DNA of 64,000 bases from Phoronis australis (lineage: Eukaryota; Animalia; Phoronida): the NCBI GenBank assembly GCA_002633005.1, contig NMRA01000279.1, forward strand, positions 337,397 to 401,396. Direction: 5' to 3'. Of this stretch, positions 36,061-64,000 are shown in pieces. Below the pieces are notes generated by a model, which saw only the letters and a list, made by a program, of their open reading frames with translations, made no database searches and had not been told where the DNA came from. The position numbers and the translations under genes were made by a program. Positions within the stretch are counted from its first letter, which is position 1; each line of letters begins with the position of its first letter.

Positions 36061-36371
36061 ATGTTTTGAGTTGCTCACAAACTTTACAGTCAGGTCGTGC
36101 GAGTTGAAACAAAGATAAGTTAAATTCACGCCCTATCACAACACACCATCATAACTGAAAGTCCTACCACGAAAACCTATGCCACAAAAAATAACGAGCG
36201 AGAAATGATTCACATTTAATGTTCCAAAAGCAATGTATTCGAACAAAATTTTCACAGCAGACAAATGGGTTTGGGCATTAGTAACAAATGATGACACTCC
36301 GTTTAAATTTCTTTGCTTTGTTTCAAGACTACCCACACCTCAGCTGTATGCTATGTAGAAAAGCAAAACGA

Positions 36372-39300
36372 TCACCCTTTAAATTGAATATAAGCCAACA
36401 AGGGAAGGTGATCTGAGGGAAACTTGGCATTCGGCAAGAGAACGCTCTCGTTAATGGCATCCATTGGTGGAATGTCCAGCACCGCTGTGGCACGAAGGGT
36501 CTTGGAACTGAGCCACAAGTAATCGAGGCATTCTGAGAAAACATCTGTCGATCCCGGCAATGGAACGTCCAGATTGGTCGTCTTTGGTTCATGACCCTGA
36601 AACAAGTTATTTGTGAATAAAATTACAGTTGTAGAGCAAACATGGTTATTGTAACACAAAACGGCCATGATGTAATCCTAGACATCTTAATGACTAAACT
36701 GGAAATGCTAGCGTCACCGCCCATCAAGAGTAAAAATGTAAAAGCAAAGTAAATATTCATAGACTGGGCAATCTGGAGACCTGTGGTTCGATTCCCAGTT
36801 GGGGGTTTCTGATTTTTCTGTGTTTATTTGATATAAAAACAATGCATTAGATAATAGTAGTGTCAAAGCCATCACTTCAATCTCACATGGACATCACTTC
36901 GCATGTCAACCAAAAAACAAAGATTCTGGATTTCAACCATCCCAACTAAGAGTGTTGGCTACTTGTGATGGTCAACTATGCCGAAATTGCATTAAGAGGA
37001 ATATACTTAGGTTAATTAAATTGAGGAACATAAAAGTTGTAGCACGCATGGGCCCCAGGGAATTTTGCTAAGTATACGTGCGTATACTGAGTAATCAATT
37101 TGCCAAAATTAAATGATTGATCAAAATGTCTGTGACTACTGAGTGCAATTCAGTACCAAAAGCTGGTTAAAGCAACAGTGTACCATGTACTTACATCGCT
37201 CTATACGTGCCAACGGACACTTAATGCGAGTACAGCACACAAAAGAAACCCGTATGTATTACTTGTGCCTTAACCCAGGTTTGCGGCCACACAGGAATTT
37301 GAGAGGGGCACAAGTTACCCCACCTCTATAAGGTGGAGTAAGTTGTCACAAATGAGGTAAGTTGCACTAGTTTAACTAGCGTCCACACAGTCACCACACC
37401 TGGCAACAATTCGTTTTAGGAGTACCTTGTTCCACGGTAAGTCTGTGTGTGAAAGGCACAATAGACTTACCATTACGGATGAATAAGCGCTGACCAGTTG
37501 AGTGGTGATTTGGAAGTGCTGCTCCATCAGCTTACAGAAACTGTCTTCATTCTGTAACACACATGTCAACTTATAACTGACATCACGTAACCAGTTTGGG
37601 CTATTCAGAATTCATGGGGAGTAATAAAACATTATCTTCTCATCCAGGACCATAAACCTTTTGTTCAGCTGAGTTTACTGACACAGGTCAACTGAGATAG
37701 TTGTATGACTAAGAACAAGGTTCACAAAGAAGTACTTTCACTGACCTTGCAAATCCATTTAAACAGGCCTATTGTGTGTGAAGGTCACCCAGAATTTAAA
37801 AACATTCCCAAAATTCTTAGCCACCATGGGGACTAGTTACACCCTCCAAGCCCACAATGCTGGTCATCAAACACATTTTACGATAACTCACATAACATGG
37901 CACATGTTCAACTTTCACTCTTGTTATCTTCCTGCCTTGTAGAAACTCGTACGCAGGGTAGTTTACAGGAGTGTTGAAGTCTCCAACAAGCAGGTGAGGC
38001 ACATGTAGGTCACCAGCGAACTTCACCAATTCACTGGCAGCACAGCTCACCTGGAGTTAAAAATACACTTGTGGGGGAAAATTAGCAATCACAATCTCTT
38101 CCACTACCATCATCGCCATTATGATCATCATCATAAACAGAAACGTGGAGTTCAGATGAAGACCTATTCGTACATGTACATGCCGTTTTACATTACGCAC
38201 ATGTGCAGTGGAATGAGAATCTTGATTGACTCAGTGATCAGCCAGTCGGGATACAGTCGTGTTGTCATCAGTTTTGACAGTGGCAAACCAATGTTTACAT
38301 AGTCCAGCTCTCTTATTGTCTGCTTTCATCTGATAAGATCACTGACCTAATGTGGCAATTATGTTGTAAACCGATACTTAAAAATACTATTTGGAAACGA
38401 CTTTCAACAAATGTTGTGAAACAGATGTGTGTGATGAAATACTTTCACCAAAAATCTTCGAATGGAGAAAAACGGTTGACTTTCAGAGAAATTAGATTTA
38501 ACTTTCACTTGTTGATTCCTTTGTCTGAATAAGATCTGACTAGCTCAACCACAGTGCTGTGTACCAACACAAAAGGCAACTTTAATCGAGCATGATTCTA
38601 GATTAGATCGTGATAGTGGAAATTTCTTTGATTTTTACACTTCAGGAGAACGGTACGTAATGTCTTCAATTCTAACCATCATTCGGTCACTGAGGAATGA
38701 AAAGCAGCCTGACAGAACAAACAAAAGCATCCAATGAGAATCGAATACACATGGGTTCATGAGTTCAGAGCAATGGGACTGTGGAAAACAATTTGCCAAC
38801 TACACAATTGAATTTCCTAAAAAATGTGGCTACCTGTAACAGTTGTATGTCTGGTCTGCAAAGTAGTCCCCACATCACATGTAGATTCCCCACACAAATA
38901 GTTCTATTTGTTGTCAAGCAACGGAGTCTAAATAATAGCACTATCTGATCATACATGTGCAGTTCACTTTGGAGTCTTTCTTTGTCCTCTGATTTCAAGT
39001 CCACGTCCTGGAATGTAGAGAAGTACTCAAATCATGGACTAAACAAATCTTTAAGGTAAATTGTGAGCAAAAGTGAAACAGATACTATGAACAAGAGCAA
39101 TGCAGAGCATTGATATCCACACATCATGTGCACTGTAGATAGCGCATATACAAAACACGATCACTATTTTAAACATTACCAGTAAACTGAGCAATGATAG
39201 TAAACTTAATAATAGCCTATAGCGGGTGCAAAGCAAGACGGAAGTATTCTCCTCAATAGGAACATGCTTAGCACCTTCCATCTTAATTGTTCAAGAAGTT

Positions 39301-41599
39301 TGGAGGACAGGGAAAGAGACGACAAAGGAAACAAAAACAACAGACATGCCCCTAGAAGGTACACCGCAGGTCAAATTCATCTGAAACTTGGTTGGGTGTT
39401 GTTGTAAGCACGATAGTAATTAATGAATTTGCCAAATGTACAGAACATCCATCAAGGAACTTGATAGATGTCATGGCAAAAACAAAGGAAAACATTAAAA
39501 TTGCCACTAGGAGACACAGAAATAGTCAAATTTGTCCCAAAATCCACGCCAGTTGTACTCTCCTCAATAGAAACATGTGCTAAATTTCATAAAGACCCAT
39601 TAAGGAACTTCTATTGAGCCATACTTAAAAAAAACAAGATTCCCACAAAAGGACATTACCGCAGTCACACTCATTCAAAAGTCATTGTCAGCATAGAAAT
39701 TTTGCCCTGGAATGTCAACTCATCACACTGGACAGTTTAAATGTAGTGACTGTAAAGTGGAAACTATGTGGATCAAATAACAAGATGGCGACTCCTGTAG
39801 TCAGATAGCCACGGACAGTTTTAATTTCTCACCTGTATTAAAGTATCAGCTATGTTGGCCAGCAGACATGACCTCACGTCCAGCAGTTCAAACTTGTTTC
39901 TCTTGAAAGCAATCACAAGTCCTCTACTATCATTCTTGCTGGTGTATCCTTACAATGAACAACCACACGTTATTACCACGTCACACGTTACATTACAAGT
40001 AAAAACATCAATCAACAAGAGCGTTAAGTGACCAAGATATTTCAAGTGAGAAAATAAAACAGAGAGCACTGAGAAATATGGATTTAGATACAAGAATAAA
40101 TCAAGCTCGGACTTGAATACATGAATAAATGACGCATGATGTTGAGTAAATCAAGCATGGAGTTTAATTCATCAGTAAATTATGTACGGCCATGTTGAAT
40201 CCATAGTAAATCTTGGGGTCCATGGGTAAATCCAAGGTAACATTAAATTACACTATAAGCTGTAAGCAATCTAACAAAAAGGTGACTCGAAATCAATGAT
40301 TTCAAAAAAAGACTGGATTGAAAGTCAGTTTTGACCAATGTTTAAGAAATCATCTCAATATTACTTTGATTTTGGCTTCACTGCTTATTCAGTTGTTAAA
40401 TAATCAGTAAAAAACAAGAGACCCAATAAAGTACTCGCAATGCAGTCATCTTGTAATCATTAAGACATGGAATACCTTGAGAATTGCTGCTTTTATCAAG
40501 GGCTAGACACAGACACTTAATGATTCAACCACTCTAACTCTCTCACATTTATTTGGATGTCCAGTTGAAACTGTTTGCACTTACTTTAGCATACCTGATG
40601 GTAGACACCAAGTTCTACGATCATAATGACAGTCAGAGAATCTACATAACCATTGGTTTCAATGGCTACCAGCAGACGAACAGGGGCAAAATTCTAGTCA
40701 CACATTTACCAATCTTGTTTAAGTCAGCCTCAAGTTTGTCTTGAAAGTGATGATCTTCTACTTCTTGAAGGCAAATTATGTCCGCATCATATTCTTGTAG
40801 TTCTTTCATTATCCTGGGGTGGCGCCACTTGAGGTACCTCTCCGATGTACTTAGATGCGTGTAACCATCCTTGATAAACTTGTCCGCTGAAAGTACCACG
40901 AAAATTGTTATTTTGGCAACAGTCAGGGGTTCCCAGATTTTGAGAACCAGTTTGATGTCTGTTATGTAGTGGAGAAAACTGGTTCTAGAAGTCAGCCCAG
41001 TAATTAGATACAATGCATCATTCATCAAAATCACACTTAGTCATTTTAATGCATTACAGTTGAGATGTCTGCAAAGTAGTAAACTGAAGGCTTTGCTGAG
41101 TCCACTATGCTTCAACTTGCCTATTTCAGTCAGACCACAGGTATTTGAGAAACAATATTTCATCCAGCAACACGATTTTTATGATTTTAATCAGTGTGAG
41201 CGATAATTGGGCGTATGGAGGGAGTATGGAATGGGCACCGTCCGTTTATTATACCAGGTCTGTACGCTAGTAGCGTACAGACCTGGTATAATGTCTACTC
41301 CTTACGATGTACCGTCGCCTGGTCTTTGCAACATCTTTCACACAATGACTGCACTGCAGTTTCACCACAGACAACAGCACGAACAACTATAAGTATTAAT
41401 ACCCTAATTCACTAAAAACGTGTCTTTTACCCAAGATATTGTAGGTTACGATACTGAAGGAATGTTTTAGCCAATGTAGGTCATTTTCCATTTCACTTTC
41501 TCCTTTATCCACCGATCTCAACTTCCTGGGATGGACTGAAAACCCTTCCAGAAGACCTAAGTCAAGTTCGGAGGGCTCTGACACTCTATACAGAGACAT
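36372..41599 (-). CDS. CCR4/Angel/nocturnin/PDE12-like endonuclease-exonuclease-phosphatase (EEP) family protein, 366 aa, 7 coding exons
   Basis: Exons 41599-41431, 40886-40710, 39948-39833, 39007-38834, 38050-37892, 37551-37471 and 36596-36372 (1101 nt, phases consistent). Motifs TYNILAD, DIICLQEV, VGNLH, LVGDFN, LDYLW and FPSDHLPL are present. An in-frame TAA lies just upstream of the ATG; the acceptor of this exon is at about 41620. Confidence 0.9.
41248..41292. repeat. Perfect 45-bp palindrome (22-bp arms, 1-nt loop)
   Basis: ATTATACCAGGTCTGTACGCTA-G-TAGCGTACAGACCTGGTATAAT. Confidence 0.97.
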
Positions 41600-42675
41600 T
41601 ATTTAAGGCTGTCATAAATCTAAAAGTTACAAGTACAGGTCATATTTTACTGTTGACATGTTTTAACAATCGCATCTCCAAACAGTCAAGGACCCGTGAT
41701 CCCGACTTGCCCCCTAGCGGTTGTGTTTTGTCGTGGCTGTACATGAACTTGGAATCCTGTGCCCAGTTCCATGAAACAATCCCCCCAATCTCTGTCTATG
41801 ACATCATTGAATTTTTCTCTAATCTGTTCAGTGAGGAAACCTTTTCCAGGAGCAAAAGTGTTCTGACCTTTTTACTCATGTGATTGATGAGAGAGCCACT
41901 TGGAAAATACGTCTGCACTGATTCTACCCACATCTGTGTGCTGTCATTGAAACCCACGTGTTCACAGTTCCAGTGAAGCACTTGAATAGTTTGTTTGTTG
42001 GGGTTAACCCAGCTCAACACAGTGGGGTGCTTTGGATACTTTAAACTAGGTTTGGATGAACCCGCTCATTGTAAACAAAAGATACATGGAGTGTTGAAAT
42101 ACACCCACGACAACTCCAGTAGTGTTCTTACTATCGTAAAGATGGCCATTAAACGGCACTGAGAATACATTGAACCCATCGAAAGCAAGACGTAGACTTC
42201 TCAGTAAGAACTGAATGAAAATCCTCAAAGGATCTCTAAGGACAGAGACAGTCGTAACTCAGTTTTTTGAGGAAAAAACAAATTTCCATTCGGAAGCACA
42301 GCAGTAATCAATTCATTATTATCTTTAATGTAATGTAAATAAAAGCAGTGGTTCAGTTGTTTAAAATAGGACTACACGCGCCAAATTATCATTTTACAAG
42401 TTGTTAAGTAGAAAAAAACACAGATGTCAAAAAGAGCAACGAGGAGCGTTCAAATGCGCCCACGATAAGTTTAATGAGTATTTTAGATGCCGCATATTGC
42501 GTCACACCCATTCGAATTGAAAAGGTGGCGTCATCTCTGCAAAACACGGATAACTATTTCCAAATTCAATGAAAATAACTTGGCTGACGAAGACCTATGA
42601 CATACAAACATAAAAAACAACATTAGGGGATGTAAATAAAACAGTTGGTTTTAAACAGTTATTGCACAGATATCG

Positions 42676-43184: not shown

Positions 43185-46052
43185 TTTTTTCGCCTTTTTG
43201 GCCCATTTTCACCATAGCAGAACCCAGTCAATATCCAAACTTTTGGTTTGTTTAGATATTGAATAATTTGCTGCGTTGCCTAGGCTCACATATTCTACAG
43301 TTCTTTTTATTACAGAGTGTAAACTTTAGTTTTTAACCCTCTTTACAGTAGGTGAGGGTTAGAAACGCAGAATTTCACAAATTTCGGAACGAGTGCCTGT
43401 TCTATGACGAACCCTACCATTTCTCAATGATTAAGCACAACTTCGCCTAGGTGATTCTGAAAGTGACTCAAGTTATTCCAAGTCATATCAAAGCAAATGC
43501 TTACTTGATAAAATAAATTTCTTTTCTACTGTTGACAGTTGAAAATTGTAATTTTTAAAATGGCCACTCGTAACGCGAAAAATGCATGAAATTCTTAGAC
43601 AAAAACACGCGTAAATTTCTCAGACGTCCGATTTTTTGCACAACTAAATAAATCTTTGCATTTGAGATTCAGTTTGCATTTGGTCAGTGACCAAAAAGAT
43701 TATTTTAGACCGTAACACAGTCAACTCTCGAATATGGACCATGGTTGTGATTTAGCCGTTAGCTAAATATGTGTGTTTTGTGCGTTAGTGTGAGTGCGTG
43801 TGTGTGTGTGCGTGTCTGTTACTGTTTTCAATTGTTGTGCAATGTTTAACTGCAATGTTCCATTCAACTAAAAAAAAACAACAACGGCAACAACAAACGC
43901 TGTCGGGTGTTTTTGAGTGCTGCAACTCCCTGTTGTCAATATTATGTGTGACGAAATCTTTCAAACTGATATTCACTGTCGCTAAGGCAAACTAAATGCC
44001 AATTGTCGGAAATTCTGTTCGAAATCAAAATTGCCAGGCGCAATATATTGACGTTAAATGCCAAGGTAGCATCGTGTCTGCGCACATCGCAAGAGCAGCG
44101 TGAGACAACCGACGTCACGTTCTCGCTCAAGTCGTATAAAGAGCAAATAATTTCAAAGGCAACGAGGAAAAGAAATTGGACGCCTTCCAACTATTCCGTC
44201 TATTTTTTAGTGGTTGTGAATGACTGCCTCCGAACAAAGGACGTTATATCACGGAAACGACACATTACTATTTTAAATGAGTTTGGAGTCGCTTTCGATG
44301 GAGTAGATCTAATTTAAAATGTTGTATTATTATTTGATACATCTCCAACTTGATTCAGCTCATTAACGTTTGAAACTTAACAAAAATGTTGATTTCATCA
44401 GTTCCCTGTTAACGCGATCAGAAAAGCACCGTCACCACGCCATTTCAGGGTTTACAGTGAAGTTTTTACTTCAGAAGTGGCAGCACCCAACTACCGTAAA
44501 CGTACTACATTGCAGATACACCAATGTTTTTGTAGACACGCCAGTGCTCCAGCCTCCCATCTCAGAAAATGGTGACGATTGATATGTGTCATCATACATT
44601 ATGTTAATGAAATTTCATCCATTGAAAACATCAGGTTGGTGAAAGGTAGAGAATTTGACCGGGGCTGCCTAAAAACGTAACTTTCTGTTTTAATAGTTTC
44701 GCCAAAATATTAATTAATGAATCTAAGTATTTAAGTAACTTCCTGGTCACGACACCTAGTCCAGTCATGTTCGGCAGAACGGACGAATCAAAAGATTTTT
44801 TGAGTATTAAAAAACTTTTGTTAAGCCTTTCATGATGATCAAGACAGACACGATTTTATTGTTATTATGTTGTTATTCGATAGGATTCTTTTTAGATAAC
44901 CCTCAACTCCAATCCAGTTACTTAGACGGCATACATGCAATCGACAAAAAACACCTAGAGGATCCAAACATCAAGGAAGCAATGCTTTTGTTTAAAATAT
45001 CCTTATTATAAGGTGTTTCTTAAGAAACGTGAAGTATACCTAATGGAGGCATAATTTGATTGTTAGCAGATCAAGGAAGTCTAAAAGAAGCCCACTCGCA
45101 TTACAACAAACAAGCACGATACAAAACAATGAAATTAATACTAAGTATTCTCGCTCATTTGTTGAAACTTGAAAAATTGAATGAAAGCGATATTTTGCAA
45201 TTGCAAATGTGTACATAATTGAAAAAGTTAACATATTAATTATTGTGGAATAGAATACATCACTAATTGCAATTCTGTTCAGGCCCCCTGGTGCTGCCAA
45301 CTAAACTTGAGTAAGGTGACGAGGGGTGTGAGGGTGGTACGAATGTATTACAGGATCTCTTCAGAAAGCAACACTCAGCACTGATGAAGATAAACTTATC
45401 GAAATATAAACAAATCCTCGACGCACGGCGTCGTAAGGGCCAGGACACCATGCACATAAATGTACACTATAAAGACAACTGTTGGGTGATGCAATCTCGT
45501 GCAGCGTGTTGGTATTTGATGCCTCAGAATCGTCACTCCATGAAACGTCAACACGAACAATAAGGGGGATGTCTATTCAATGGAAATTGTGATTTATGTA
45601 GGGAAAAACACGTGACTCCAAGTAGTAACGTACGTGTACTGAGGTCATCGTCATACTACTGCAAAAATTTCGCTTGTATGTGTAGTTATGATGCCCAATA
45701 ACCGAAATTATGTGTTCCACAAACATAGTTTAGGTTACCTCACGGCAGATATTCTTGGTAGAAAGTGACATTATTTCTATTGGTTCTCGTCTTAAAATCC
45801 ACTACCTTGGTAAAAAATTCAGTAGTATTTCGTGATTGCTGTAGGCGACCTTCTTCATTCATTCATTTTTATTGCAAAGATGTTTTGAATGAAATGAATC
45901 AGTTTGTCTTTTTTACTTGCTATGTCACGAGCATAAAAAAATTGTAAAATGTTTTATCTTCTTTGCAATCACCCTGGATGTCAGCACGACTTCAATACAA
46001 GAAGTCGTGAGCTCCCGGACCTTCTTCCCACACGAACGATCGTCATGAACTC

Positions 46053-46134
46053 TATAAAAACTGCACGTGCGTTACAGTCGGGTCGTCATCTAACGAAGAT
46101 CTTTGGTTGTTCATGGGATCTTCTGGAGGACACG
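46053..46134 (+). promoter_or_regulatory. TATA box and probable non-coding first exon of the prepropeptide gene
   Basis: TATAAAA at 46053-46059, a TCA Inr-like site about 30 nt downstream, and a consensus donor ACG|gtaagt at 46134/46135. The next acceptor, tttgcag, ends at 47258, 10 nt before the ATG. Confidence 0.6.
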
Positions 46135-46389
46135 GTAAGTATTTGTGTGAGATTTATTCATTTAATTCAACTTAGGCTCTTTAGGTCAAAAACATTTAGT
46201 TGGTTTACTAGTTTACGCGCTATACAGTTTGGAGCTCTGCGCAAACGTGTGTTTGATGGAGGACTAACAATATGGCTGGCACTGCTGAATAACATTGAAC
46301 CCCCTTTTTGCAGAAAAAACATATTTTACAAAACACATATACATAGCAAGTGTGCACACTTAGTCACAAATAACAACACTAGATACTAA

Positions 46390-46765
46390 GTATGATAGGT
46401 AGAGATTCTAAATAAAATATGCAAGATCTTCCCACTTAGTTATGTGTCGCTCCAACTCAAAATTTTGCTTATAAATCAAGTAATCAACTTAAAAATAATC
46501 TATGATATAAACCCGTCAGTTATCAAAAATAGGTACGGCTTCCTTAAGTTTCTCCCTATATATAAACATTTTTGTTACGCGAAATATGATATCATGTACA
46601 AACAAACTTTTATTGCAAAAACCTAACAACACCTCTTGCGGAAATATTTATATTGTTGTGAAAAATCTGCTTGAGCCAAACTAGTAATTCGTTCCACAAA
46701 ATTTTAACATATCTACACTCCCAGAACAAATGTACAATTGATTCTCCCCTTTTATGAACGTACAA
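46390..46765 (-). mobile_element. 3' end fragment of an L1/Tx1-type non-LTR retrotransposon
   Basis: ESIVHLFWECRYVKILWNELLVWL is the zf-RVT C-terminal motif, followed by a degenerate ..KMFIYREK..KW tail. It lies antisense in intron 1 of the peptide gene. Confidence 0.75.
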
Positions 46766-47268
46766 AATTCGGTAGAAAAAACGCAAAACAACAAACAACT
46801 GCGCGTTATGTGATTTAGCCACATCCTTAGTTTCCATTTCTGTTTGATGTTTTAAATTGGTGAAAGTAAAACAACGGACATCTTCAAATTGTCTAAATTC
46901 TCTTGTTTGTCCAGGGTTTTAGAATAATATACCTGTTGGGATGAAATGACGTGCTGTTTTATTGCCGTTATTAGCAAGCAACATGTCCCACACGAAACCA
47001 TAATACAAGGACAAACTTGTGAGCAACAAGAAATCGCACAGTGCACTCAGACACATTGATGGTAGCTTTACCACCCCATAGAAGACGAATGAAACCAATC
47101 ACAATCACGCTCATAAACCATTCACCATTGTTATTCTTTCATAACTATTATAACGTATCCTGTTACCACACTACTCATTGTTCATTATAATCGTCTGATC
47201 ACCATGTTCATCGCCGTCGTCTTCGTTGCCGCCATCATTATGTGCTGGCTATTTGCAGTTGAATCAAG

Positions 47269-50200
47269 ATGAACAAGACTATAATCTCCTTTCTCGTCCT
47301 CACCGTGCTGTTGAGCGTGGTGGTGGAGAACGACGCTTGGTTTGTTCGTGTGAGAAGGGTCTGGAGATGGGTCAAACGAAAGGCAGTCAACTAGTAAGTT
47401 CTACATGCACACGTTGGTGTCGCTGCCAGGGATATTCCTGCACAGCGTCTTTGCGCCATTAGTGCATGAAAAAAAAAAAAAAAAATAAAAAGGCACAAGT
47501 ACACCGCAGCAGTACGTCCCCAGGGTGCATCTTTTAAAACTCAACACTTACAAAAATGCAAGATTCTAGTCAACTTAGTCGGGTAAAACACGACTGTTCT
47601 TATTTCGATTGCTCTTGGTTTTTCTGTTTCATATGATACCACTTAAATTACACTAAGTCTACGGGGCACAACTTTTTGAAAAAAGGCACACTTTTCATTA
47701 TTAGGTGCGCCCAAAGGGCACAGGTTCAAACCTGGTGAGGAATATCTTTGCGGTGCAAAACAATGATTGTTGTTTTCAAGTATAATCACGCTCATGCGAT
47801 ACAATGTTCGTCATTTTTCGTTCGACGTTATAACTTAATATATAGTAACGTACATGGACGAACGTCGTGCAAATAGCGAACTCGCGAATATCTATAATGA
47901 GTGTGAAAACATGTGTTTAGACAATCATCGAACGAATATCAACAAACGTTTTCCGGACTGTGGAAGAGCTGAGCACGAGTGTCGCATAAAATGATACCAC
48001 GTGACTAGCGACGAACTTATCGAGCCTGATCTCGAGCGCTAATTAGGGCGAATAGCGGCAGAATTACATACAGCAGCGTAGTTTAATGCACACAAATTAC
48101 ACGTCGTGCAAACCAGTCGGTCATCCCGTTTACCATCAACAATCCCAGTAGCCTTTGCGCACCCTAATTTCCGGACATGCGCAATCGTTAAATCGATTCG
48201 GTTGCAACTCCGCTATTGTCAGTTGTCTATTGGCCGAGTAAGAAACAAATTAGTACCAGATTTATAGCGGTAAGTACTCTAAATCAAAAGAATATTGACA
48301 AATAGCGGATATACTAGTCACTTGAAATTTTGTTCATTTAAAAAATTATATCATATTGAAAGATCCATTATTTGGACATGCGTTTTAACTAATTTGTCCG
48401 GCTATCAAGCTAACTGCGGTCTCCGGGCTGTATTACATTTTTGTGTAGGCCCCATGTCTAAAAAATTGGTAACTGTTAGTAAGTTCCGGGCTCTCATACA
48501 TGAACATCTTGATTACTATAAAGAGTGTGAAAAATGTGTTTAGACAATAAAAAAATTTAAATTGGTATTGGTTGTGTTAAAATTGGGTTATGTAAAGCGA
48601 ACATTCTATTTCCTCTTGATTTCAGTGCTGTGGTTAAAGGAGCCACGGCCCTACTGGGGAAGAGAGACGTAAGTATTTTTAAGTCCAGTTCACACGAATC
48701 TTTTTGGGGGCAGAGTTGTGAGTGTAGCGCATTTTTTTGTTTATTAGCGGGTCCAGTCACTAGGTGGCGAGACCGTCTCGTCGATGAATCGATCGACTCG
48801 CCTCGAACAGCCAAACAACATCTCGTCAAAATAGCTCGAAAAACTAAAGGAAGTTGGCGCAGTTACAAAAGGCTAAGACAGTGACGTAGAATTTTTGATG
48901 CACAATATTCCAAGACTTGTGCTTTTTCACCTGAAAATACCACATGTGGACATATCTGACAGCGTTTCAGTAAGACTCACGCAACTTTGGCTTGCGAACG
49001 GTAAATGTTAACAGATCATTAAAACTCACTTTTGCAATGAATATCTACTTTTCAGGCTAACAATCGCAAACAATATACCATACCTGTCGCAAGTTTAATT
49101 TGCTAAGTTTTGCTAAGAAAAACTATTTTGCGACACGAAATTCGACTCGAGATGTCGCAAAATTAATAGCGCCTCCTTGTAACGCAAAAATTATAATCAT
49201 AAGAAAACATTCTACTTAGATCCCTGCTGGTATTTCTCGTCCGTTCTTTGGACTTTAGAGTCTGACTTTCCCAGCTGAAGTCCGTCCTTCCCATCTGCAG
49301 AGCGAGATTGGATGGTCAAACCTTATGTAGTAAGCGAGATTGGATGGTCAAGCCTTATGTAGTAAGCGAGATTGGAAGGTCCAACCTTATATAGTAAGCG
49401 AGATTGGACGGTCAAGCCTCATGTAGTAAGCGAGATTGGAAGGTCAAACCTTATATAGTAAGCGAGATTGGACGGTCAAGCCTCATGTAGTAAGCGAGAT
49501 TAGATGGTCAAGCCTTATATAGTAAGCGAGATTGGACGGTCAAGCCTCATGTAGTAAGCGAGATTAGATGGTCAAGCCTTATATAGTAAGCGAAATTGGA
49601 TGGTAAAACCTTAATTAGTAAACGAGATTGGATGGTCAAGCCTTGTGTAGTAAGGGAGATTTGATGGTCAAGGCTTATGTAGTAAGTGAGCTTGGATGGT
49701 CAAGCCTTATGTAGTAAGCGAATTTGGATGGTAAAGCCTTAATTAGTAAACGAGATTGGATGGTCAAGCCTTGTGTAGTGTGTAGTAAGCGAGATTGGAT
49801 GGTCAAGCCTTATGTAGTAAGCGAGATTGGAAGGTCCAAACTTATATAGTAAGCGAGATTGGACGGTCAAGCCTCATGTAGTTAGCGAGATTAGATGGTC
49901 AAGCCTTATATAGTAAGCGAGATTGGACGGTCAAGCCCTATATAGTAAGCGAAATTGGATGGTAAAGCCTTATATAGTAAGCGAGATTGAATGATCAAGC
50001 CTTATCGGTAGTAAGCCAGATGGGACGGTCAAGCCTTATGTAGTAAGCGAGATTGGATGGTCAAGCCTTATGTAATAAGCGAGATTGGATGGTTAAGCCT
50101 CACGTAGTAAGCGAGATTGGATGGTCAAGCCTTATGTAGTAAGCGAGATTGGAAGGTCAAGCCTTATGTAGTAAGTGAGATTGGATGGTCAAGCCTTATG

Positions 50201-53200
50201 TAGTAAGCGAGATTGGAAGGTCAAGCCTTATGTAATAAGCGAGATTGGATGGTCAAGCCTTATATGGTAAGCGGCCAGAAGCGGTGTTCCCAGTTGACCA
50301 GGTCAGCATTACGACGAATTTACAGAACCTATAAAAACAGCCAACTATGTTTTAAAAATGTCTCTAACTTATCAAAATTCGATTGTTCAATTTTCGGAAG
50401 TATGCTCCTTTGTAAACAAACTTTTGACAAACTAATGAATTGTGTGAATTGTATATTGGACCCTTGCAAAAAATATCAGGCTGTGCGACGGCGGTAAGTG
50501 GGTTTAGTCGGCTTATAAAAACGTTCATCCGCTTGGCAAAACCTATCCTTCGTAAATACAAATTTAACGATTACTCAGACGGCATTTCAACTAGAACAGT
50601 TTTTTTTTATTTCATTTTATTTCGTTCCACGCCATGTTTAGAAGAAAAACCTGACCAGCATTGTTTTCCAAAAGCCACGCCCGCACTTAAAGAGTTGTCT
50701 GCAACCCACATTGTCGAGCAGTTCAATATCATCACATACAGTTTTCCTAGTTCTACAGTAGAACAAAGAGTGGCGCTTAGCGCTGACCCGGTATGCAGAT
50801 AATGAACAAATTTTACGTTGCGGTGTGCTTACTTATTCCACTTTTTCGTTCAAGTTGTCCAAGATGACTGACGCGGACTACCAGGCGATTATGAAGTATG
50901 TTCCAGCTGACGAAAAGGAAATAGTCCTTAGATACTTGAGGGACCCGGAAGGATTCGGTAAATAAAAACATATCTAGTTTTGAAAACAAACGCTTGTCAA
51001 ATTTACAATTGAAGAGGTCAATTTCTTTTTATTTTACGTAGTTTGAACTGCTGTAACTACTCTTGTCCAAATAAAAGGGACCAGTTAATATATCTCTGAG
51101 AGTGTTTTACTATGAAGACAAACGTGGTTCGTGGAACTAATGTGCAGCTACTAATAGTCGCGAAATGTTGCATGACGCAACTTGACCTGAACCCGGATTC
51201 TAATTACTGGCGAAATGGATCTCAAAATTATGTTTGGCATTTTCTACCCTACTGTTGTGCGAATTCAAGATAAGTGTCTATTATTCTATGCTCGAGTTCG
51301 TAATGACTTGCGTGGACAATTTTTAGTCATAGTTGATAAACCCAACATGATGGATAAAAGTTCGAGTTTAACCCGAAATTTCGAGTTTTTACTCGAGTTG
51401 TAGCACGAATATAAGGGTCATCGAGTGCAAACTTGGACTAGAAACTCGTATGCGTAAACTATAAAGTATTCGAGCACATTCTAATAACCACTTATCTTGA
51501 GTTCGCACAAAAGTAGCAGAGAAATTGTCAAAAACAATTTCGAGTTCGTTTCGAGTACTAAGATTACATTCCGGGCCCAGGCTGAAGTTGCATACTGAAT
51601 CTGTAACATAGCAACAAAGATGACGACGACGATGATAGCATTAGCGACAGCAAGTAGTCTGACGGATATTAGCTTAAGGGAAAGGAATATTTCGTAATCG
51701 TAATCTGATAATTAATAAATTAGGCCTGCACCCATTTGTAAACGAGGTAGTTGAAAGTACTATTTCAATTACTTATAGAGAGATACAACAAAAGATAAAT
51801 AAACTCGTGCCCTTTATGTAATGCTGAAGTGAGTATTTACAACGAACACTTTTCCAGTATCTCCATTGTTTCCTTCCACAGCCAAAGATAAGGACGAATT
51901 ACTTGGCGATACCGCGCATCTCAAAGAAGACACCAGGGGACTAGGTATTTAAATCGTTCTCAACTTTGCTAACTTTAGCAAACATCATGCGCGCACCCAT
52001 GCAGGAGGGGGGGGGGGGGNNNNNNNNNNNNNNNCCCCCCATTTGGCAAAGTGGGCAAAAAGGTCCACCTCAGAGAAACAAAAAGTCCGATAAAACGAGA
52101 CAAAAGTACACTAAAAAGGTGCGAAAGCAGAATTCATAGCTCTGAAAGAACGTGGTGCGCCGTTTTTCTTTAGTCCCCATTTTTTGTTAGTAAAAGGTCC
52201 ACATTGTCAAAAATACGAGCCCCCCTATATTTTAGGCTGGGTGCGCGCATGAACATTATTAAAACCACCTGTTAACCACCGTTGGTTCCATGACATCAAT
52301 GTTTTCAAATCAATTTCAAATGCAAGCGCTGATTACAGCCAGGTAACACTTGTGAGTAATATAGTCCCAGAGTATCACCAAGGACAGGGCTGGCTGTAAG
52401 TACCTTTCAAGACGGGTGTAGTTCTCCCGTTGGAGAGGGGTTGTTAGCCACGTGCCGCCGTATTCCATCTCATTGCCGAGCTCGGGTGGGGATTTCGCCT
52501 TCTCTACTGAATGGTCGACCTTTTTGCTCTCTCAAGTATCGTAGCAGGTGGGTAGTGTGCATTCAGGTATCATTTTGGGTGGGAATTCACCTTCTCAATA
52601 AACATCGCCTCAGGTGGCGTTTTCATCTTCTCGGGAAATGTGGTTTGCTTCATCATACAGTCGGAAGTTCGTTCCACAATAAAACAACACTTAGGGCAGG
52701 AAAGTGCAGAAAAGACTTTACTTTGTACAGTTTAATTTGTTACACTTCAATCATTGTCGTTACCATCATCATCTTTATCGTTAGGGTTTTTGTTGATAAC
52801 TCGTGACCATTAAATGTGCAGTTGGGCTCTTGGCACACCTAAAACTGAACCGCTTTGGCATTGATTTGCATAACCGTGCCCGTCGAAACGGGGGAAACTT
52901 ACACTTCTAATCGAAATTGCTGAATTTTAATGAATAACATTTTATCACAGAAATTTGAGTAGGTCTAGTGTTAGTATAACGGTTCCGGTCATGAGTTGCT
53001 AAGAAAAGGCAGTCCACAACAACAGTGCATCGAGGTGATGTCAACATTTTTGAATTTTTTCAGAGACTACAAATTGCTTTATCGACAGGCTTTGGTATTT
53101 GTCATAAGTTTTCTGGCGAAACAACTGTTTAATGCAAAATAAAGTGAAGTTGAGAACCATTTCAACCCCAACGTGTTCTCGGAAACCGGACAGTGAAAAT

Positions 53201-53301
53201 GTACCTCTGTACTCATCAAGAATGTATTTGCAGAGGACGAGCTTGACGACGACATGGCCAAGGAGTTTGCCAAGTACCTGAAGGAAGAAGGGGTGTACTA
53301 A
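47269..53301 (+). CDS. Secreted prepropeptide, 133 aa: signal peptide + cationic Trp/Arg-rich amidated peptide + acidic C-terminal pro-region (candidate antimicrobial peptide precursor)
   Basis: Exons 47269-47393, 48626-48668, 50855-50957, 51882-51944 and 53234-53301 (402 nt, all GT-AG, phases 2,0,1,1). Translation: MNKTIISFLVLTVLLSVVVENDA WFVRVRRVWRWVKRKAVNYAVVKGATALL GKR DLSKMTDADYQAIMKYVPADEKEIVLRYLRDPEGFAKDKDELLGDTAHLKEDTRGLEDELDDDMAKEFAKYLKEEGVY*. Confidence 0.85.
49300..50272. repeat. 32-bp minisatellite, about 30 copies, in an intron of the peptide gene
   Basis: GTAGTAAGCGAGATTGGATGGTCAAGCCTTAT head-to-tail units with no spacers. Confidence 0.97.
51189..51578. mobile_element. Fold-back MITE (~390 bp)
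   Basis: Termini CCCGGATTCTAAT and ATTACATTCCGGG, with internal inverted blocks CAAGATAAGTG/CACTTATCTTG. Confidence 0.65.
51986..52251 (+). mobile_element. MITE with 14-bp perfect TIR and 5-bp TSD
   Basis: CATGCGCGCACCCA..TGGGTGCGCGCATG flanked by AACAT on both sides (51981-51985, 52252-52256). It contains a small N gap. Confidence 0.85.
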
Positions 53302-53499
53302 AGTTGAACAAAGCGTGAGGTAATGTCATGAAACTTACGGCTCGTCTAGAGATGTCTTATAATTTATTGTTGACTCATTGATAACTTATCAAGTGTGCTA
53401 CGTGTTTTTAATCGAGTGGGAGATTCCCAGGAAGCAATGTCGGATGATCACGTAAAACCTGTGAGTTATCGCCATCTGTCTGCACCATGAGCTGCTGTA

Positions 53500-54068: not shown

Positions 54069-54890
54069 GTACGGTTTTCCGCAGTGGGGGCATAGGGAAC
54101 TTTTGACTTTGTGAGGTCACTGGTATCCGGTCACATGTGATCAACTGAAACGTTACCATTACTAGAAAGTAGGTCTCTCATCAATAGTAGTAACAGATGT
54201 AACAATTTGTAACAAATGTAAGAATTTGTTGCCAGTGCTCACGTGACCATTCCCGTCGTGAACTTTCTTGTAGCCTTGTATAATAGCTCCTTTAAAAAGT
54301 TGACTATAGACGGGAACCAGGATTGACAGCCAGGGAAAGTACGTTTACATTGTTACGGTGTCTTTATTCGTTCTATTCCAGACTCTGATCGCCTACCAGC
54401 GGAAAATGACCGGAAAACTAGAACGATATTGTGAAACTTTACATTCAGTGGACGCAATTTCCTCTTTCTATGTAGATCTACACTGTTGCTGCTTTCGTAA
54501 ACACAAATAAAAACTTTGAGTTGACGTGAAGTTTCCTGGCCCAATATTAAGCTGATATGAACCTGTTTTCTCCCAAAAAGCTAACTTTTACACAGACCCC
54601 TAACTGAACCGTTCCCCACTCAGAATTGACAAATTTGAGTGTTCTGATCCCGGACTCTGGCCCAACAGTTTTTCGCAAAAAAGTTGGAGAACAAGGAACA
54701 GTTAAAGTAACTGCAACTAACTAAAATTGCAAAATTGTAATGCGCACAAACTTCTATTGCATTACGTCCAAACATTACAATCTGGAAAAATTGCACAAGC
54801 AAATATACAGAAACAGAACTGAATGATCATTATCAGTGGCCGGCTCATATGAACTTATGACATCATCACGGAATCGGAGTCAAACGTTTG

Positions 54891-55146
54891 CACACGCGTA
54901 CCTAGCCTTCAATATGGGGGGGCTCGAATTCCTCACGTTGTGAACCTTTTAAATTGCTAACAAAAGAGCGGGCACACTAAAAAAAAATAAAAAGGGAGTA
55001 CCACTGTGAATTGCGCGTTTGCGCTTATTGTGCACTTTTGTCCCATTATCTTGGACTTTTTGTCTCTCGGGGCAGACCTTTTTGCCCACTTCGCCAAATG
55101 GGGGGCTCCTTAGAGTCCCCCGAGCCCCCCCCTGGGTGCGCGCATG
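54891..55146 (-). mobile_element. Second, inverted copy of the 51986-52251 MITE family
   Basis: Ends in TGGGTGCGCGCATG. The internal ACCTTTTTGCCCACTT.GCCAAATGGGGG is the reverse complement of the first copy. Flanks are GTTTG/GTTTT. Confidence 0.8.
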
Positions 55147-57994
55147 GTTTTGACACGTTTCTTTCATTTTCCATCCAAAGAAGATTGTTTCTGTTCATCA
55201 TTTGATGCTTACAATTATTTGCCGTGCTTTTCCCTCTTCAAAACATTTGCGGAACCATTTGTCAGCATTAGGTTTGGTCGGCACGACTCGACTGCACCGA
55301 GGACCATACCGATTTGCTAAAAAGTATATCAGACAAAATTTACGTCTTTTCTTGGTGATTACGATTTATTGAATTGGTTATCCATGCAGTAGAATTCATT
55401 CAGACATTCAGACGTTATCGAGGCTAAAATCCAACAACTAGCCAGTTTCGCGGTGGGTATATCATGGGCTGAATGGGTACAACGGTCCACTGAGCGAAGC
55501 TGCAGCAGTGTCAGAAAGTTAATTAATATTAAAAATGAACACATACAGGTGTCCCAACTACGTTCCGCTCTTAGGTGTCCACTTCCCAACACTTTCCGTG
55601 GCTTAAAATGCAGTTGACCGCAGATTTCACTTGGGCTGTGGCCAGGTCAAGGGACCTATGACGTCACAACGGAGCATGGTGAAAGTTGACAAGTTTACTT
55701 TACTTCTCCTCCGAAGACGATTGTTTCGGTACATTTTTTGGCAATTTGCAATCGCTTGCCGTGCTTTTCCCTCTTCACAAATCTTAGACTTTTTTGTAAC
55801 GCTCACTTGGCTGGAGGACAGCCGTCGGGACGAGGGCTGTCTGGAGACGCTACCACTAACTGACAACCTGTTCTATCATAGGTTTTTAATTTTGGGGCGA
55901 AACTTTTGTCTCCAGTCTTGGCCATTACAGCTCATGAACAACGTCATTTAGTGCACAAAAGGCCGTCAAACACTTTTCGGGGTTCAAAAAAAGTAGTGTT
56001 GTTTTGGGTTTACCTCGAGCTTGCTATGCCGAGACGACCAGTTGACGTCTGCGGAAACTAATTTATTTTATTTTACATAAATTCTAAGTAGTTATTCCAA
56101 AGTAAATGTTTAGTACCTAGTATATTCCGCTATCTTAAAACACGCTCCAGCAATTTTAGAGGTTCAAAAAGCAGTATTTTCCTTGCCTGTTCACTTGGGC
56201 CGGTGGCTGGCGCGAATTAGTTAATGACGCCACCACAGAGGCGGAATCAAAGACAAGACAACTTTCGTTTCAATACTCCTGCAGAGATTGATTCTGCACG
56301 CCTTTCGATGTTTACAAACGCTTGTTGTGCTTTTGCCTTATGAAAAGCCTTTTGCACTTTTCCTAGAGTTTTGTTTTACTCCATATAACCACAAACACCG
56401 AACCAGAACCCTGCCGACTTTGCAAAAAGATTCTATCACGTGTTTAAGTTTCAAGCATATGTCTTCTTTTGGGTTTAAAGTTTAGTCAATCAACTATTCA
56501 TCTCATACAGTACACACTCAGACGCTTTTTCGGCAAAAATCGCACTAGTTTCGTCCTGGGCTTAACTCGGGCTGGGTAGAATGGTCCGCCGGGTCGAGTT
56601 GATCAGTAATAGACGGAAAGTTGATTTTATCAAAAATACGCAGGTGCTCCAACGAAGATACAGCAGCTCTTTGATATTGCTTATCGATCTTGAGTATTGT
56701 TACCTAATGAGCCCGCGGAGTTACAGCATTTAATGCTTTGCGCCATTTTCGAAATCACAATTTTAGGGTTGGCCAACCCTATTAAAGTCTGAATATGATT
56801 GGACCACTTCATGAAAACAAAAGGCCAAATTCAAATTTTGTTTTTAGCCATATACACGAAGCAAAATGCATTTTTTGATATCAGAGACAATCATTATCAG
56901 TCACAAAGATGCCATAAATTTTCCATGCGTCATTCGATTCAGTTCTAGGTATTAGCACGGTGATAATGTACACTCAGCAAACCTTCACTGTGAGCTGAGA
57001 ACCTAAAGTGTTCATTGGTTGTAACATATAAAGCAGACACTCCTAAGTGAGAAACCTCTTGCTTCATTTCTTTACCTGCAATTTGTCTCGTTTCACCAAC
57101 AGGTTCACTGAGGTGCACAATAAAATCCTCTTTATTAACCAAATATATAGACCTTAACATCACAAACAGGTGTGCATGCTATCCATAGTAATGGTGAATT
57201 ACTTGTAGTTTCATTTTGGAACTCACTAGTACCATCGACATTTATGGCAAGACAAGTTTATCAGACTACCAAAATACACATTCAACTATAGGATTCCATT
57301 TCTACTAACAAATCAAGTCAAAGGCAATGTGTAATCAAGCCATTTTTTAATTTTGCAATTTTACGGTTGACCAACACCCCAATAAAGTCTGAACATATTC
57401 TTGAGTTCCTGATAGTTTCAGTGTGCTTTTTGGAAGCAGCAAGAGAATCCTCTCACCGATGGAAGTATAAGGTCTAATTCGATTTTCATTTTCAACCACC
57501 TAAATAGAGAACGCAGCTTTAAATCGTTGATATTAGGGTTATTCATTCCACAAGCCCTCCTGTCAAAAACAGCAGGCAGTGATAGACCAATAATCTCCTA
57601 AGAGAAACGAAAGTAAGAGTAATTAAATTGAGCAAACTCATCTCGGCAAGGATTCGTCGTATCACGACTCTCGAGCTCGAAAAATTGTGCTGGAGCTCAC
57701 ACACCCTGTTTAGTCGTACACGGAAATCATATACTAGACTTTCAAAGAGATCACATGTCCTTTCTATGAATGCAGTCGAATAAACACTTGATACCTGAAT
57801 TAAAAATTGGGTAACATGCCGGACATTCCAGACGTTTGAGTTACTGTCAGTGCATGCCTATATAACCGCCACACCATGGCAACTAATATGTGATACACAA
57901 TAACTTTATCTCAAATTACAACAGAGAAAGTACAAATCTCCTCCTAAACTTCAACTATCAAAAACAAGAAGAACAGTCTATAAATTGCATGAAT

Positions 57995-58389
57995 TAGGCT
58001 TGACACAATATCAAAAGCACAAAATAATCTTGGATAATATAACAAAACTGAGCGTGTCAGGCTAGATAATAACTAGGCTTGACACAATATCAAAAGCACA
58101 AAATAATCTTGGATAATATAACAAAACTGAGCGTGTCAGGCTAGATAATAACTAGGCTTGACACAATATCAAAAGCACAAAATAATCTTGGATAATATAA
58201 CAAAACTGAGCGTGTCAGGCTAAATAATAACTAAGCTTGACACAATATCAAAAGCACAAAATAATCTTGGATAATATAACAAAACTGAGCGGGTCAGGCT
58301 AAATAATAACTAAGCTTGACACAATATCAAAAGCACAAAATAATCTTGGATAATATAACAAAACTGAGCGGGTCAGGCTAGATAATAAC
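57995..58389. repeat. 79-bp tandem repeat, 5 near-identical copies
   Basis: GGCTTGACACAATATCAAAAGCACAAAATAATCTTGGATAATATAACAAAACTGAGCGTGTCAGGCTAGATAATAACTA units. Confidence 0.97.
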
Positions 58390-61300: not shown

Positions 61301-62029
61301 ACAGTCTTTGGGCCCACATTTATTCTTAAGTGAAGATTTCCTATTAGGTGTTAGGTTACACATTCTTTATTGTTGTATTTCATTATTGTATCCCTGTTAC
61401 ATACAGATGCTCCAAGCACATTCTATTCTAACTGAGACAATTTCGATGTATGAGGGCGCTACAATCAATGACTAGACGGTTTTGCTCTACCACAATCCTT
61501 ACTCTAACAGACTTCAGAACAACGCACGTAACCAAAAATTATACTACATAGACTGCCAACACCATATACTTTCAATACGCATAAGCCGTTAAGTCATTAT
61601 TCACTAGCAGCACCTGGCCAAATTATCTGGAGTTATTTCTGGCAAGTATGTCGTCTGCTAATCGTGGTCGGCTGTTGTGTGGTCCAGTGGTAGTGGCATT
61701 GCTAAAAGTACTCACGATACTAACAGTTCTACTATTGAAAGATTTTGAACACAGTTTCAATGCTGAAATAATGATTTTTTTGTTGTTGTAGACAGTAAAG
61801 TAGATGCGAGAATTTCCCAGTCACAACACACTAACTGGAAACTGCACCAGATAGTTTGAGAGAGTGGCGCCTCCTCTAGCATACCACACAAGAAAATGTC
61901 GGAGTTGCGAATCTGTTGTCTATAATCCATGATGTAGGCTAACTGAATGATTTTAATTTCAAAAAACAAACGCCAAATGCAAAGATATATGGTGCCTGAT
62001 CCACTATTAACCTCACAACAACAGTGAAA

Positions 62030-64000
62030 ACTGAAAAGATTATTGTCACGGCGTGAAAATAACGGACTCTGCGCGTGCGTATTACTGGAATTATTATGAG
62101 AAGTTACTGACAGCAACCCGTTTACCAATATGAAAAGGAATTCTTTAAAATTGTAGGAGAAATTACATATTAATTTTTTGATGACCTTTCCACTAATTGA
62201 CCTCTTCCGGTGCATTATGGGAACCGATGAGGGAGTAATTGTTAACTCGATTAAAAGTGTGGTTAATGCTAATAATCACAGATGTTATACTTTAAGCACT
62301 TCAGAATACAACATGAATGAAGTGGTCAAATTTTCAGACGAAAAATGCACCTAATGACCCCATGGGTGCACCAAATGACCTGAAAATTTAGAATTCAAAC
62401 TCAATCGCACTTAGTAAACAGATATGTAATTCTGAAGTCTCTAACTCAAAATTTTAGTTTGCACTCAATGACCTTTGACCTATTTTTTCTGATTGGTTAG
62501 GCTTATTTCGAAGTAAAGTAGGGAATTGAATTGGCATGTTTTGACTCACATCAGTGTGATGAAATTGAAAAGAATTCCTTGAAAAACGTAAGAGATATAA
62601 CATTTTGAACGTTACATGACCTTTGCACTAATTGACCTTATCCGGTGCATTTTAAGCATCTTTAGAGAATTATTGCAAAGCCCATGGAAATTGTGTTTAA
62701 CGCTGAGAATCACAGTTGTCTAACGGTTGACACATCAGAATACTTGCTGATTGAAAAGGTCAAATTTTCAGAAGAAAAATGCACCTAATGACCCCATGTT
62801 TGCACTAAATGACCTGAAACTTTGGATTCCGATTTGATTTACTTGTGGCAATCAGACCTGTCAATTTGAAGTGTCTAGCTCAAAATTTTAGTTTGCACCT
62901 AATGACCTTTGACCTATTTCACCTGATTGGATGACCCGATTACTTAGAAAAGTAATTTTTTAAATTGACATGTTGACTTATACCTGTGCACCGAATTTGA
63001 AAAAGATAGCTGTAAAACTGAAGGAGGAGTAGCATTTTGAAAATTATATGACCTTTGCACCAAACGACCTCTTCCGGTGCAATATAGAATATGATTATAT
63101 AACCAATCAAAATTTGTATACCGTCAAAAGTAATATGCTGAATTTAAAAACCGTACCTGCACCCAATTTGGAGTAATTAAGCCTCAAATTTGGTCGGAAG
63201 AAGAATAAGAAGAATAAGAAGAATAAGAATAAGAATAAAATTGAAGAAAACCCAGGAACAACAGTACTCTGCGCTTACACGCGCAGAGTAATAAGAATAA
63301 GAATAAGAACAAGAACAATAAGAATAAAATTGAAGAAAACCCAGGAACAACAGTACTCTGCGCTTACACGCGCAGAATAATAAGAAGAACTAGAAAGATT
63401 ATTGTCACGGCGTGACAATAATGGACTCTGCGCGTGCGTATTAAAGGAATTGTTATGGGAAGTTACTGACAGCAACCCCGTTTACCAATATGAAAAGAAA
63501 TTCTTTAAAATTGTAGGAGTAATTTCATGTTAATGTTTTGATGACCTTTCCACTAAATGACCTCTTCCGCTGCATTATGAACCCCAGTGAGTGAATAATT
63601 GTACAACCAATTTAAAGTATAGTTAAAGCTAAGAATCACAGGTGTTTTGCTTTAAGCACTTAAGAATACAACATGAATGAATTGGTCAAACTTTCAGAGG
63701 AAAAATGCACCTAATGATCCCATGGATGCACCAAATGACCCAAAAATTTAGAATTCAAACTCAATCGCGTTTAGTAAACAGATATGTAATTTTGAAGTCT
63801 CTAGCTCAAAATTTTAATTTTGCACTCAATGACCTTTGACCTATTTTTTCTGATTGGTTAGGCCTATTGCGTAGTTAAGTAGGTTGTTCAATTGGCATGT
63901 TGACATACACTAGTGTGCTGAAATTGAAAAGAATTCCTTGAAAAACGTAAGAGATTTAACATTTTGAACGTTAACTGACCTTTGCACTAATTGACCCTAT
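62030..64000. mobile_element. Two tandem Helentron/HINE-like non-autonomous elements (~1.36-kb period) with ~430-bp internal repeats and an (AAGAAT)n tract
   Basis: A TATTGTCACGGCGTGACAATA palindrome head at 63400 and a one-mismatch copy at 62041. TGACC-rich cores repeat at about 62190, 62625 and 63055. The AAGAAT microsatellite spans 63198-63390. The second copy runs off the window. Confidence 0.7.

Follow-up and report, generated by a model that had tools for sequence, protein, structure and literature searches.

A previously hidden seven-exon gene encodes a candidate amidated host-defence peptide with a sign of rapid diversification

Analysis of a 64-kb stretch of DNA (hereafter the window) uncovered a spliced, expressed seven-exon gene on the + strand, located between approximately 46083 and 54525. 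The encoded protein of 133 aa is predicted to be secreted and, after a cut at Gly-Lys-Arg, to yield a cationic, amidated peptide of 29 residues. This peptide likely kills microbes through membrane disruption, a reading to which we assign a probability of about 0.7. The previously hidden gene encodes a candidate host-defence peptide and carries a sign of rapid diversification. The first-pass annotation had described a gene of five exons; all of its coding coordinates (47269-47393, 48626-48668, 50855-50957, 51882-51944, and 53234-53301) were confirmed, but the model was incomplete, as RNA joints added two non-coding exons. The coding exons join in phase into 402 nt and give the Cys-free product of 133 aa originally proposed, and the coding introns are all GT..AG with phases 2, 0, 1, and 1. 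Exon 1 also carries an ATG upstream of the main one, at 46113. It starts a frame of 11 codons that crosses the first intron and whose TGA stop overlaps the main ATG (46113-47272, + strand); this frame could damp translation or allow re-initiation. The features of the gene are collected in Table 1, where the NF-kB-like motif was matched against the generally known consensus.

Table 1 Features of the peptide gene in the window, with the evidence for each.
Feature	Position	Strand	Evidence
TATA-like box	46053..46059	+	Sequence; ~45 nt upstream of the first read starts (X3 5′ read ends 46101, 46115); putative function
Exon 1, non-coding	46101..46134	+	Joint 46134/47259 GT..AG, X3 25 reads, 12 starts; true start probably near 46083
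Exon 2: 10 nt UTR, ATG at 47269, leader, peptide residues 1-18	47259..47393	+	Sequence, RNA joints
Predicted 23-aa signal peptide	47269..47337	+	Residue 3 is Lys; maximum 9-residue hydropathy 2.97; small residues in positions -3 and -1, ahead of W24; putative cleavage site
Arg/Val/Trp-rich cationic N-terminal part of the predicted mature peptide	47338..47393	+	R, V, or W at 12 of the first 14 residues
NF-kB-like near-palindrome, weak candidate	47429..47438	+	36 nt into the intron after exon 2; five consensus matches on the two strands of the window, of which this is one
Exon 3 (43 nt): hydrophobic C-terminal peptide part, Gly-Lys-Arg, first tail residue	48626..48668	+	Joint 47393/48626, X3 34 reads
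Gly-Lys-Arg, predicted convertase cut and amidation signal	48657..48665	+	Sequence; mechanism as described for myticalins in PMC12294457
Exon 4: tail residues 57-91	50855..50957	+	Joint 50957/51882; depth
Exon 5: tail residues 91-112	51882..51944	+	Joints at both ends
Exon 6: most acidic tail segment, stop 53299-53301, 18 nt 3′ UTR	53234..53319	+	Joints 51944/53234, 53319/54382; charge profile
Exon 7, 3′ UTR, AATAAA at 54506	54382..54525 (end approximate)	+	Joint 53319/54382; X3 depth stops in bin 54456-54611

Splicing was evaluated in three raw RNA runs (X1, X2, and X3, of which about 18–19% each was read); a fourth run with the same species label, X4, comes from another study. The libraries are stranded, with first mates on the + strand for a minus-strand neighbour gene and on the − strand for the peptide gene. 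Joints were seen directly for five of the six introns overall and for three of the four coding introns predicted in the first pass: 47393/48626 (34 reads in X3, 0 in X1 and X2), 50957/51882 (8, 8, and 29 reads in X1, X2, and X3), and 51944/53234 (5, 9, and 36 reads). The intron in the 3′ UTR is joined at 53319/54382 by 5, 5, and 34 reads. The remaining coding joint, 48668/50855, is supported indirectly, by depth. In X3, bin 48376-48817 holds 1733 bases, corresponding to about 40 reads of the 43-nt exon 3, and bin 50712-50867 holds 3.77 × 156 bases, or about 13 letters per read for the 45 reads present at 50862, which places the start of exon 4 at 50855. A later exon 4 acceptor at 50864 was rejected, since depth is present at 50862. 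X4 reaches a depth of 178 in bin 47050-47491, but a loose end at 47488 suggests that an intronic repeat is responsible, and this depth was disregarded.

The layout claimed for the precursor was recovered in full, with a 23-aa leader, a 29-mer with 8 K/R and 0 D/E (+8), Gly-Lys-Arg, and a tail of 78 aa that contains 23 D/E and 12 K/R (−11). The predicted amidated 29-mer has a mass of about 3528 Da, before any bromination of Trp of the kind known in marine peptides, and a pI of about 12, against a pI of 4.35 for the acidic tail, which itself contains amphipathic stretches with a moment of up to 0.46. Residues 24-37 (peptide positions 1-14) comprise 5 Arg, 4 Val, 3 Trp, 1 Phe, and 1 Lys, and the last 14 peptide residues carry one charge; the whole 29-mer contains no Pro, no His, and one Phe. 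Basic pairs occur in the precursor at 29-30, 36-37, 37-38, and 54-55 only, and Gly precedes the last of these only. The internal sites are R29-R30, inside an RVRR furin-type motif, and K36-R37-K38, and use of them could yield a mature product shorter than the 29-mer.

Helical periodicity had also been claimed for the peptide, and here the results are mixed. Computed with the Fauchere-Pliska scale, which HeliQuest uses too, peptide residues 1-18 have a hydrophobicity of 0.41, a net charge of +7, and a moment of 0.44, which is typical of such peptides, but 15% of 20,000 shuffles reach that moment (p = 0.15). Over all 29 residues the moment is 0.16 (shuffle p = 0.57), and at 180 degrees it is 0.42 vs. 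0.44 at 100 degrees. V26, W34, and V40 sit on the polar face, and the amphipathicity of the 29-mer is imperfect. AlphaFold2, run with one sequence on the exon-2 piece alone, returned a single helix over residues 2-40 (pLDDT 88, pTM 0.38), a weak sign for so short a peptide.

The precursor resembles the structural class of tripartite linear cationic host-defence precursors in its Cys-free cationic peptide, basic cut site, and anionic tail, as well as in its leader as judged by hydropathy and the -3/-1 rule only. This combination of signal, cationic peptide, and anionic tail, noted in the first pass, is supported by precursors described in PMC7387483 and PMC12294457. Among the Ciona linear cationic peptides described in PMC7387483, 17 of 22 candidates carry an anionic C-terminal helix, and all five that were synthesised were active; myticalin precursors, as described in PMC12294457, combine the tripartite layout with a dibasic cut and a Gly amidation signal; and engineered peptides of Arg, Trp, and Val only are reported in PMC11504230 with an MIC of 2–4 uM. 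In the proposed mechanism, signal peptidase would cut after A23 and a convertase after K54-R55, both along known pathways; a carboxypeptidase would trim the basic pair and PAM would turn G53 into an amide, following the pathway given in PMC12294457. Judging by composition, the R/V/W-rich first half may form an imperfectly amphipathic helix that docks on anionic lipids, the second half, uncharged and rich in Ala/Val/Leu, may insert into the bilayer and thereby disrupt the membrane, and the acidic tail may mask or sort the peptide until it is cut. A membrane-active host-defence peptide, as first suggested, is still the best reading on composition, layout, and variability, although its amphipathicity falls short of the ideal.

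The RNA runs also contain a second, divergent form of the gene. Linked differences in exons 4-6 mark this form, which at 50921 accounts for 7 of 8 X1 reads, 12 of 13 X2 reads, and 10 of 38 X3 reads (Fisher p = 2e-6), and an X4 contig has the same exon-6 letters (10 other letters in 112). Among the differences listed, at least 13 are exonic, and the residue is altered in 9 of the 11 listed tail codons. These 13 differences give a tail pN/pS of about 0.9, and the listed tail changes would have P = 0.015 if the true pN/pS were 0.2, the list of 13 changes being incomplete. The second form stays at about 7–14 reads across X1-X3, and depth on exons 2 and 3 amounts to 199 bases in X1, 133 in X2, and 7956 in X3; the second form did not align to peptide-coding exons 2-3 at 90% identity. 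Since the second form is even across the runs, yet exons 2-3 are nearly without X1 and X2 depth, its leader and peptide exons are therefore more than 10% different or absent. Both X1 and X2 have low + strand depth on either side of exon 1 (44840-46607). Over 45724-46165 the + strand depth is 1733 bases (3.9) in X1, 853 (1.9) in X2, and 703 in X3, and in X1 and X2 it may come from a first exon of the second form that is longer or different. Of 8 X1 reads, 3 have 1 nt inserted at 45908.

The second form may be either an allele or a paralogue, and the abundance of the window’s form in X3 only may reflect either induction or presence/absence. Both the second form and the abundance of the window’s form in one of three runs are new relative to the earlier reading, and the peptide gene is likely one of a set of copies or alleles that changes rapidly and is restricted to its lineage. 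We count the uneven expression and the variability of the tail for the defence reading. The window’s form has 3.1 joint reads per million in X3 and none in X1 or X2, and a neighbouring EEP gene is level at 1.2, 1.5, and 1.0 joint reads per million in X1, X2, and X3. Expression of the peptide gene is low in the three runs (up to about 3 joint reads per million), unlike that of a stored effector in its source tissue, which counts against the defence reading.

The same precursor layout is used by neuropeptides and venom peptides. In GnRH- or NPY-type precursors, the signal is followed by a single amidated peptide, then by Gly-Lys-Arg and an associated acidic peptide; Val or Lys after a cut site is poor for furin-type enzymes. 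A neuropeptide or peptide-hormone precursor, in which cleavage at K36-R37-K38 would release an uncharged amide of 14 residues that acts on a receptor, shares the GnRH/NPY-type arrangement and would fit the low expression, the internal basic sites, and the two non-coding exons. We nevertheless regard it as unlikely: Val and Lys follow the internal sites while Asp follows K54-R55, a charge of +8 with three Trp is generally atypical of receptor ligands, and the second form fails to align to the peptide exons at 90%, although a ligand should be the most conserved part. No Pfam hormone family matched any exon piece, in queries of 20–41 aa that have low power.

It is quite unlikely that the peptide acts on animal cells, by the same membrane action, as a cytolytic venom or skin-defence peptide against predators or prey. 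Low expression in the three runs speaks against this, as does the absence of a toxin family match in Pfam with single-exon pieces, and the marine tripartite peptides of this layout described in PMC10608444, PMC7387483, and PMC12294457 are mostly immune effectors. Linear cationic peptides with such precursors are nonetheless described from venoms (PMC7889660, PMC8290080), the near-neutral tail change and sample-restricted expression fit equally well, and the C-terminal half is hydrophobic. Less probable still is that function resides in the acidic 78-aa part or in the uncut protein, for example as ion or matrix binding, with the cationic part as a pro-piece; the tail is long, spread over three exons, and has the amphipathic stretches noted above, but its change between forms is near neutral (pN/pS ~0.9 from 13 changes in an incomplete list) and the amidation signal ends the cationic part exactly. 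A chance chain of splice-like sites that is not a gene, as might be argued from single-exon searches that returned no homologue, has a negligible probability, being already refuted by stranded GT..AG RNA joints at five of the six introns, and the ATG of the peptide gene is the only one of 2607 in the window to pass a filter for 41 stop-free codons, a hydrophobic leader, and a following net charge of at least +5, with thresholds chosen with the finding already in view.

Homology searches used single exons of 20–50 residues as queries. Exon 2 alone found no homologue, exon 4 alone had no match in the atlas, and two single-exon queries had no match in the PDB. In Pfam, no antimicrobial, hormone, or toxin family was found with single-exon pieces. 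Three candidates were rejected: one match to exon 4 in 1.84 billion, a bacterial repeat protein over 28 residues, as chance; a metagenome locus (one of 597 candidate stretches) that overlaps the end of a bacterial helicase-like ORF in antisense and matches in part through intron-derived residues; and the Pfam family MAM33 on the acidic last exon, a compositional hit below the cut-off. As positive controls, conserved EEP and STK11IP exons were also without a match in the same searches, and the blank results therefore say nothing on novelty. Four short precursor motifs had no match in literature full text, a search of main text with supplements, figures, and most subscription journals outside its scope. 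No relative emerged from these single-exon searches, and the novelty of the precursor is unproven; transcriptome supplements could hold the sequence. Within the 64-kb window there is no second copy of the peptide gene and no Rfam match.

The gene lies beyond two neighbour genes, a many-exon STK11IP orthologue (about 4000-34500, + strand; Pfam LRR and PH_S11IP_C) and an EEP-family (ANGEL/CCR4-like) gene (about 36300-42300, − strand; Pfam, with six CT..AC joints in all three RNA runs). The two neighbour genes have a CpG o/e of 0.51 and 0.49, the DNA separating them from the peptide gene 0.97, and the peptide gene itself 1.02. This suggests an invertebrate-type CpG mosaic in which the peptide gene falls into the unmethylated class, the state that a restricted or inducible gene would have in a mosaic methylome, and we count it too for the defence reading. 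A 129-aa frame of STK11IP is present twice, letter for letter, at 10480-10869 and 12697-13086 (+ strand), and a short exon of the region near 9300 recurs near 11510; the repetition is either a duplication at this locus or an artefact of assembly next to single-N gaps. Thirty copies of a 32-nt unit (49301-50273) lie in the intron that follows exon 3. Interspersed repeats with inverted arms, which appear MITE-like, occur at 51218-51547, 51981-52251, 54900-55151, and 40931-40986 and attract, on both strands, hundreds of reads that originate at other genomic sites, and further repeats comprise five copies of a 79-nt unit at 57995-58389 and a ~434-nt repeat with AAGAAT runs at 62014-64000.

Linear Cys-free defence peptides are a minority of the known marine invertebrate antimicrobials as surveyed in PMC10608444, and are missed by homology searches according to PMC7387483. 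If confirmed, the peptide could be made and tested at once, with a composition near that of designed antibiotics and possibly with salt tolerance; it would extend a known strategy to another lineage and bring no new mechanism. The second form makes it testable whether the animal keeps a diversifying, myticalin-like repertoire. We tentatively propose, as possible rather than probable, that natural Arg/Val/Trp-helix antibiotics form an undescribed family, confined to one lineage, of which this gene is the first member, a counterpart of the engineered RWV drugs, with hyper-divergent copies or alleles, peptide exons more than 10% different or found only in some individuals, and sample-specific switching.

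Compared with described families, among which the literature further includes PMC4805251, PMC4881601, PMC13518417, PMC8719109, and PMC7369796, the precursor appears assignable to no named sequence family and is likely lineage-restricted. The centrocins of sea urchins resemble it in their described 119–121-aa precursors and 30–32-aa cationic chain starting with Gly-Trp or Trp, but their N-terminal pro-piece of 30 aa and their light chain, joined to the heavy chain by a disulphide, have no counterpart here, where the peptide directly follows the leader and Cys is absent. The described piscidins and pleurocidins have a non-coding first exon, a signal-plus-peptide exon of 101–131 nt, and an exon of 19–49 nt, to be compared with 135 and 43 nt here. 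Piscidin genes, however, are reported with four exons and three introns and the prodomain on the last exon, vs. seven exons and a tail on four here; their coding-intron phases are 1 and 2 as derived from the exon sizes given, vs. 2 and 0, and their prodomain is 2–35 aa, vs. 78 aa. Piscidins are also from teleosts, whereas the CpG o/e mosaic here points to an invertebrate host.

The styelin precursor presumably resembles the peptide/tail border found here. Halocyntin and the styelins, from ascidians, are described as Cys-free helical peptides of 26–32 residues with a cationic first half and an Ala/Gly/Leu-rich end, as predicted here. The styelins are Phe-rich 31–32-mers whose N-terminal 20 residues are conserved, against one Phe here, and the peptide has no likeness to the reported N-termini of styelins A and B. 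Halocyntin as given in PMC4306955 is identical to the peptide by eye at 7 of 26 positions, ungapped with C-termini in register (P = 0.005 for this offset alone and 0.04 when all offsets are considered, before multiple-testing correction), and this is a resemblance only, not evidence of homology. WLBU2 and the RWV series, of which helical RWV peptides are described in PMC11504230 as perturbing bacterial membranes, are similar in composition to the first 14 residues here; these engineered Arg/Trp/Val peptides are idealised designs without a hydrophobic C-terminal half, a chemical likeness and not descent.

The myticalins of Mytilus, as described in PMC12294457, have in common with the precursor a tripartite layout, a Lys-Arg cut, and a Gly amidation signal; those of subfamily B have an anionic tail of 67–91 aa (78 aa here), and many variants occur between individuals. 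Their genes differ in having three exons with one phase-1 coding intron, vs. seven exons and phases 2, 0, 1, and 1, and subfamilies A and B are Pro/Arg-rich, whereas the peptide here lacks Pro. The Ciona Ci-MAM, Ci-PAP, and an unnamed family, as described in PMC7387483, share the signal, a cationic helix (predicted here), the anionic tail, and the absence of Cys. By eye, the leader fits neither of the Ciona signal-peptide consensuses given in PMC7387483: it has no MDRK start, and it agrees with the second consensus, of 23 aa, at six defined positions (M1, N2, K3, L9, L14, and A23). The Ciona candidates were screened at 50–100 aa in that source, vs. 133 aa with a 78-aa tail here. Ci-MAM-A (hydrophobicity 0.428, moment 0.380, +6) and Ci-PAP-A (0.449, 0.350, +4), with values from PMC7387483, are close to peptide residues 1-18.
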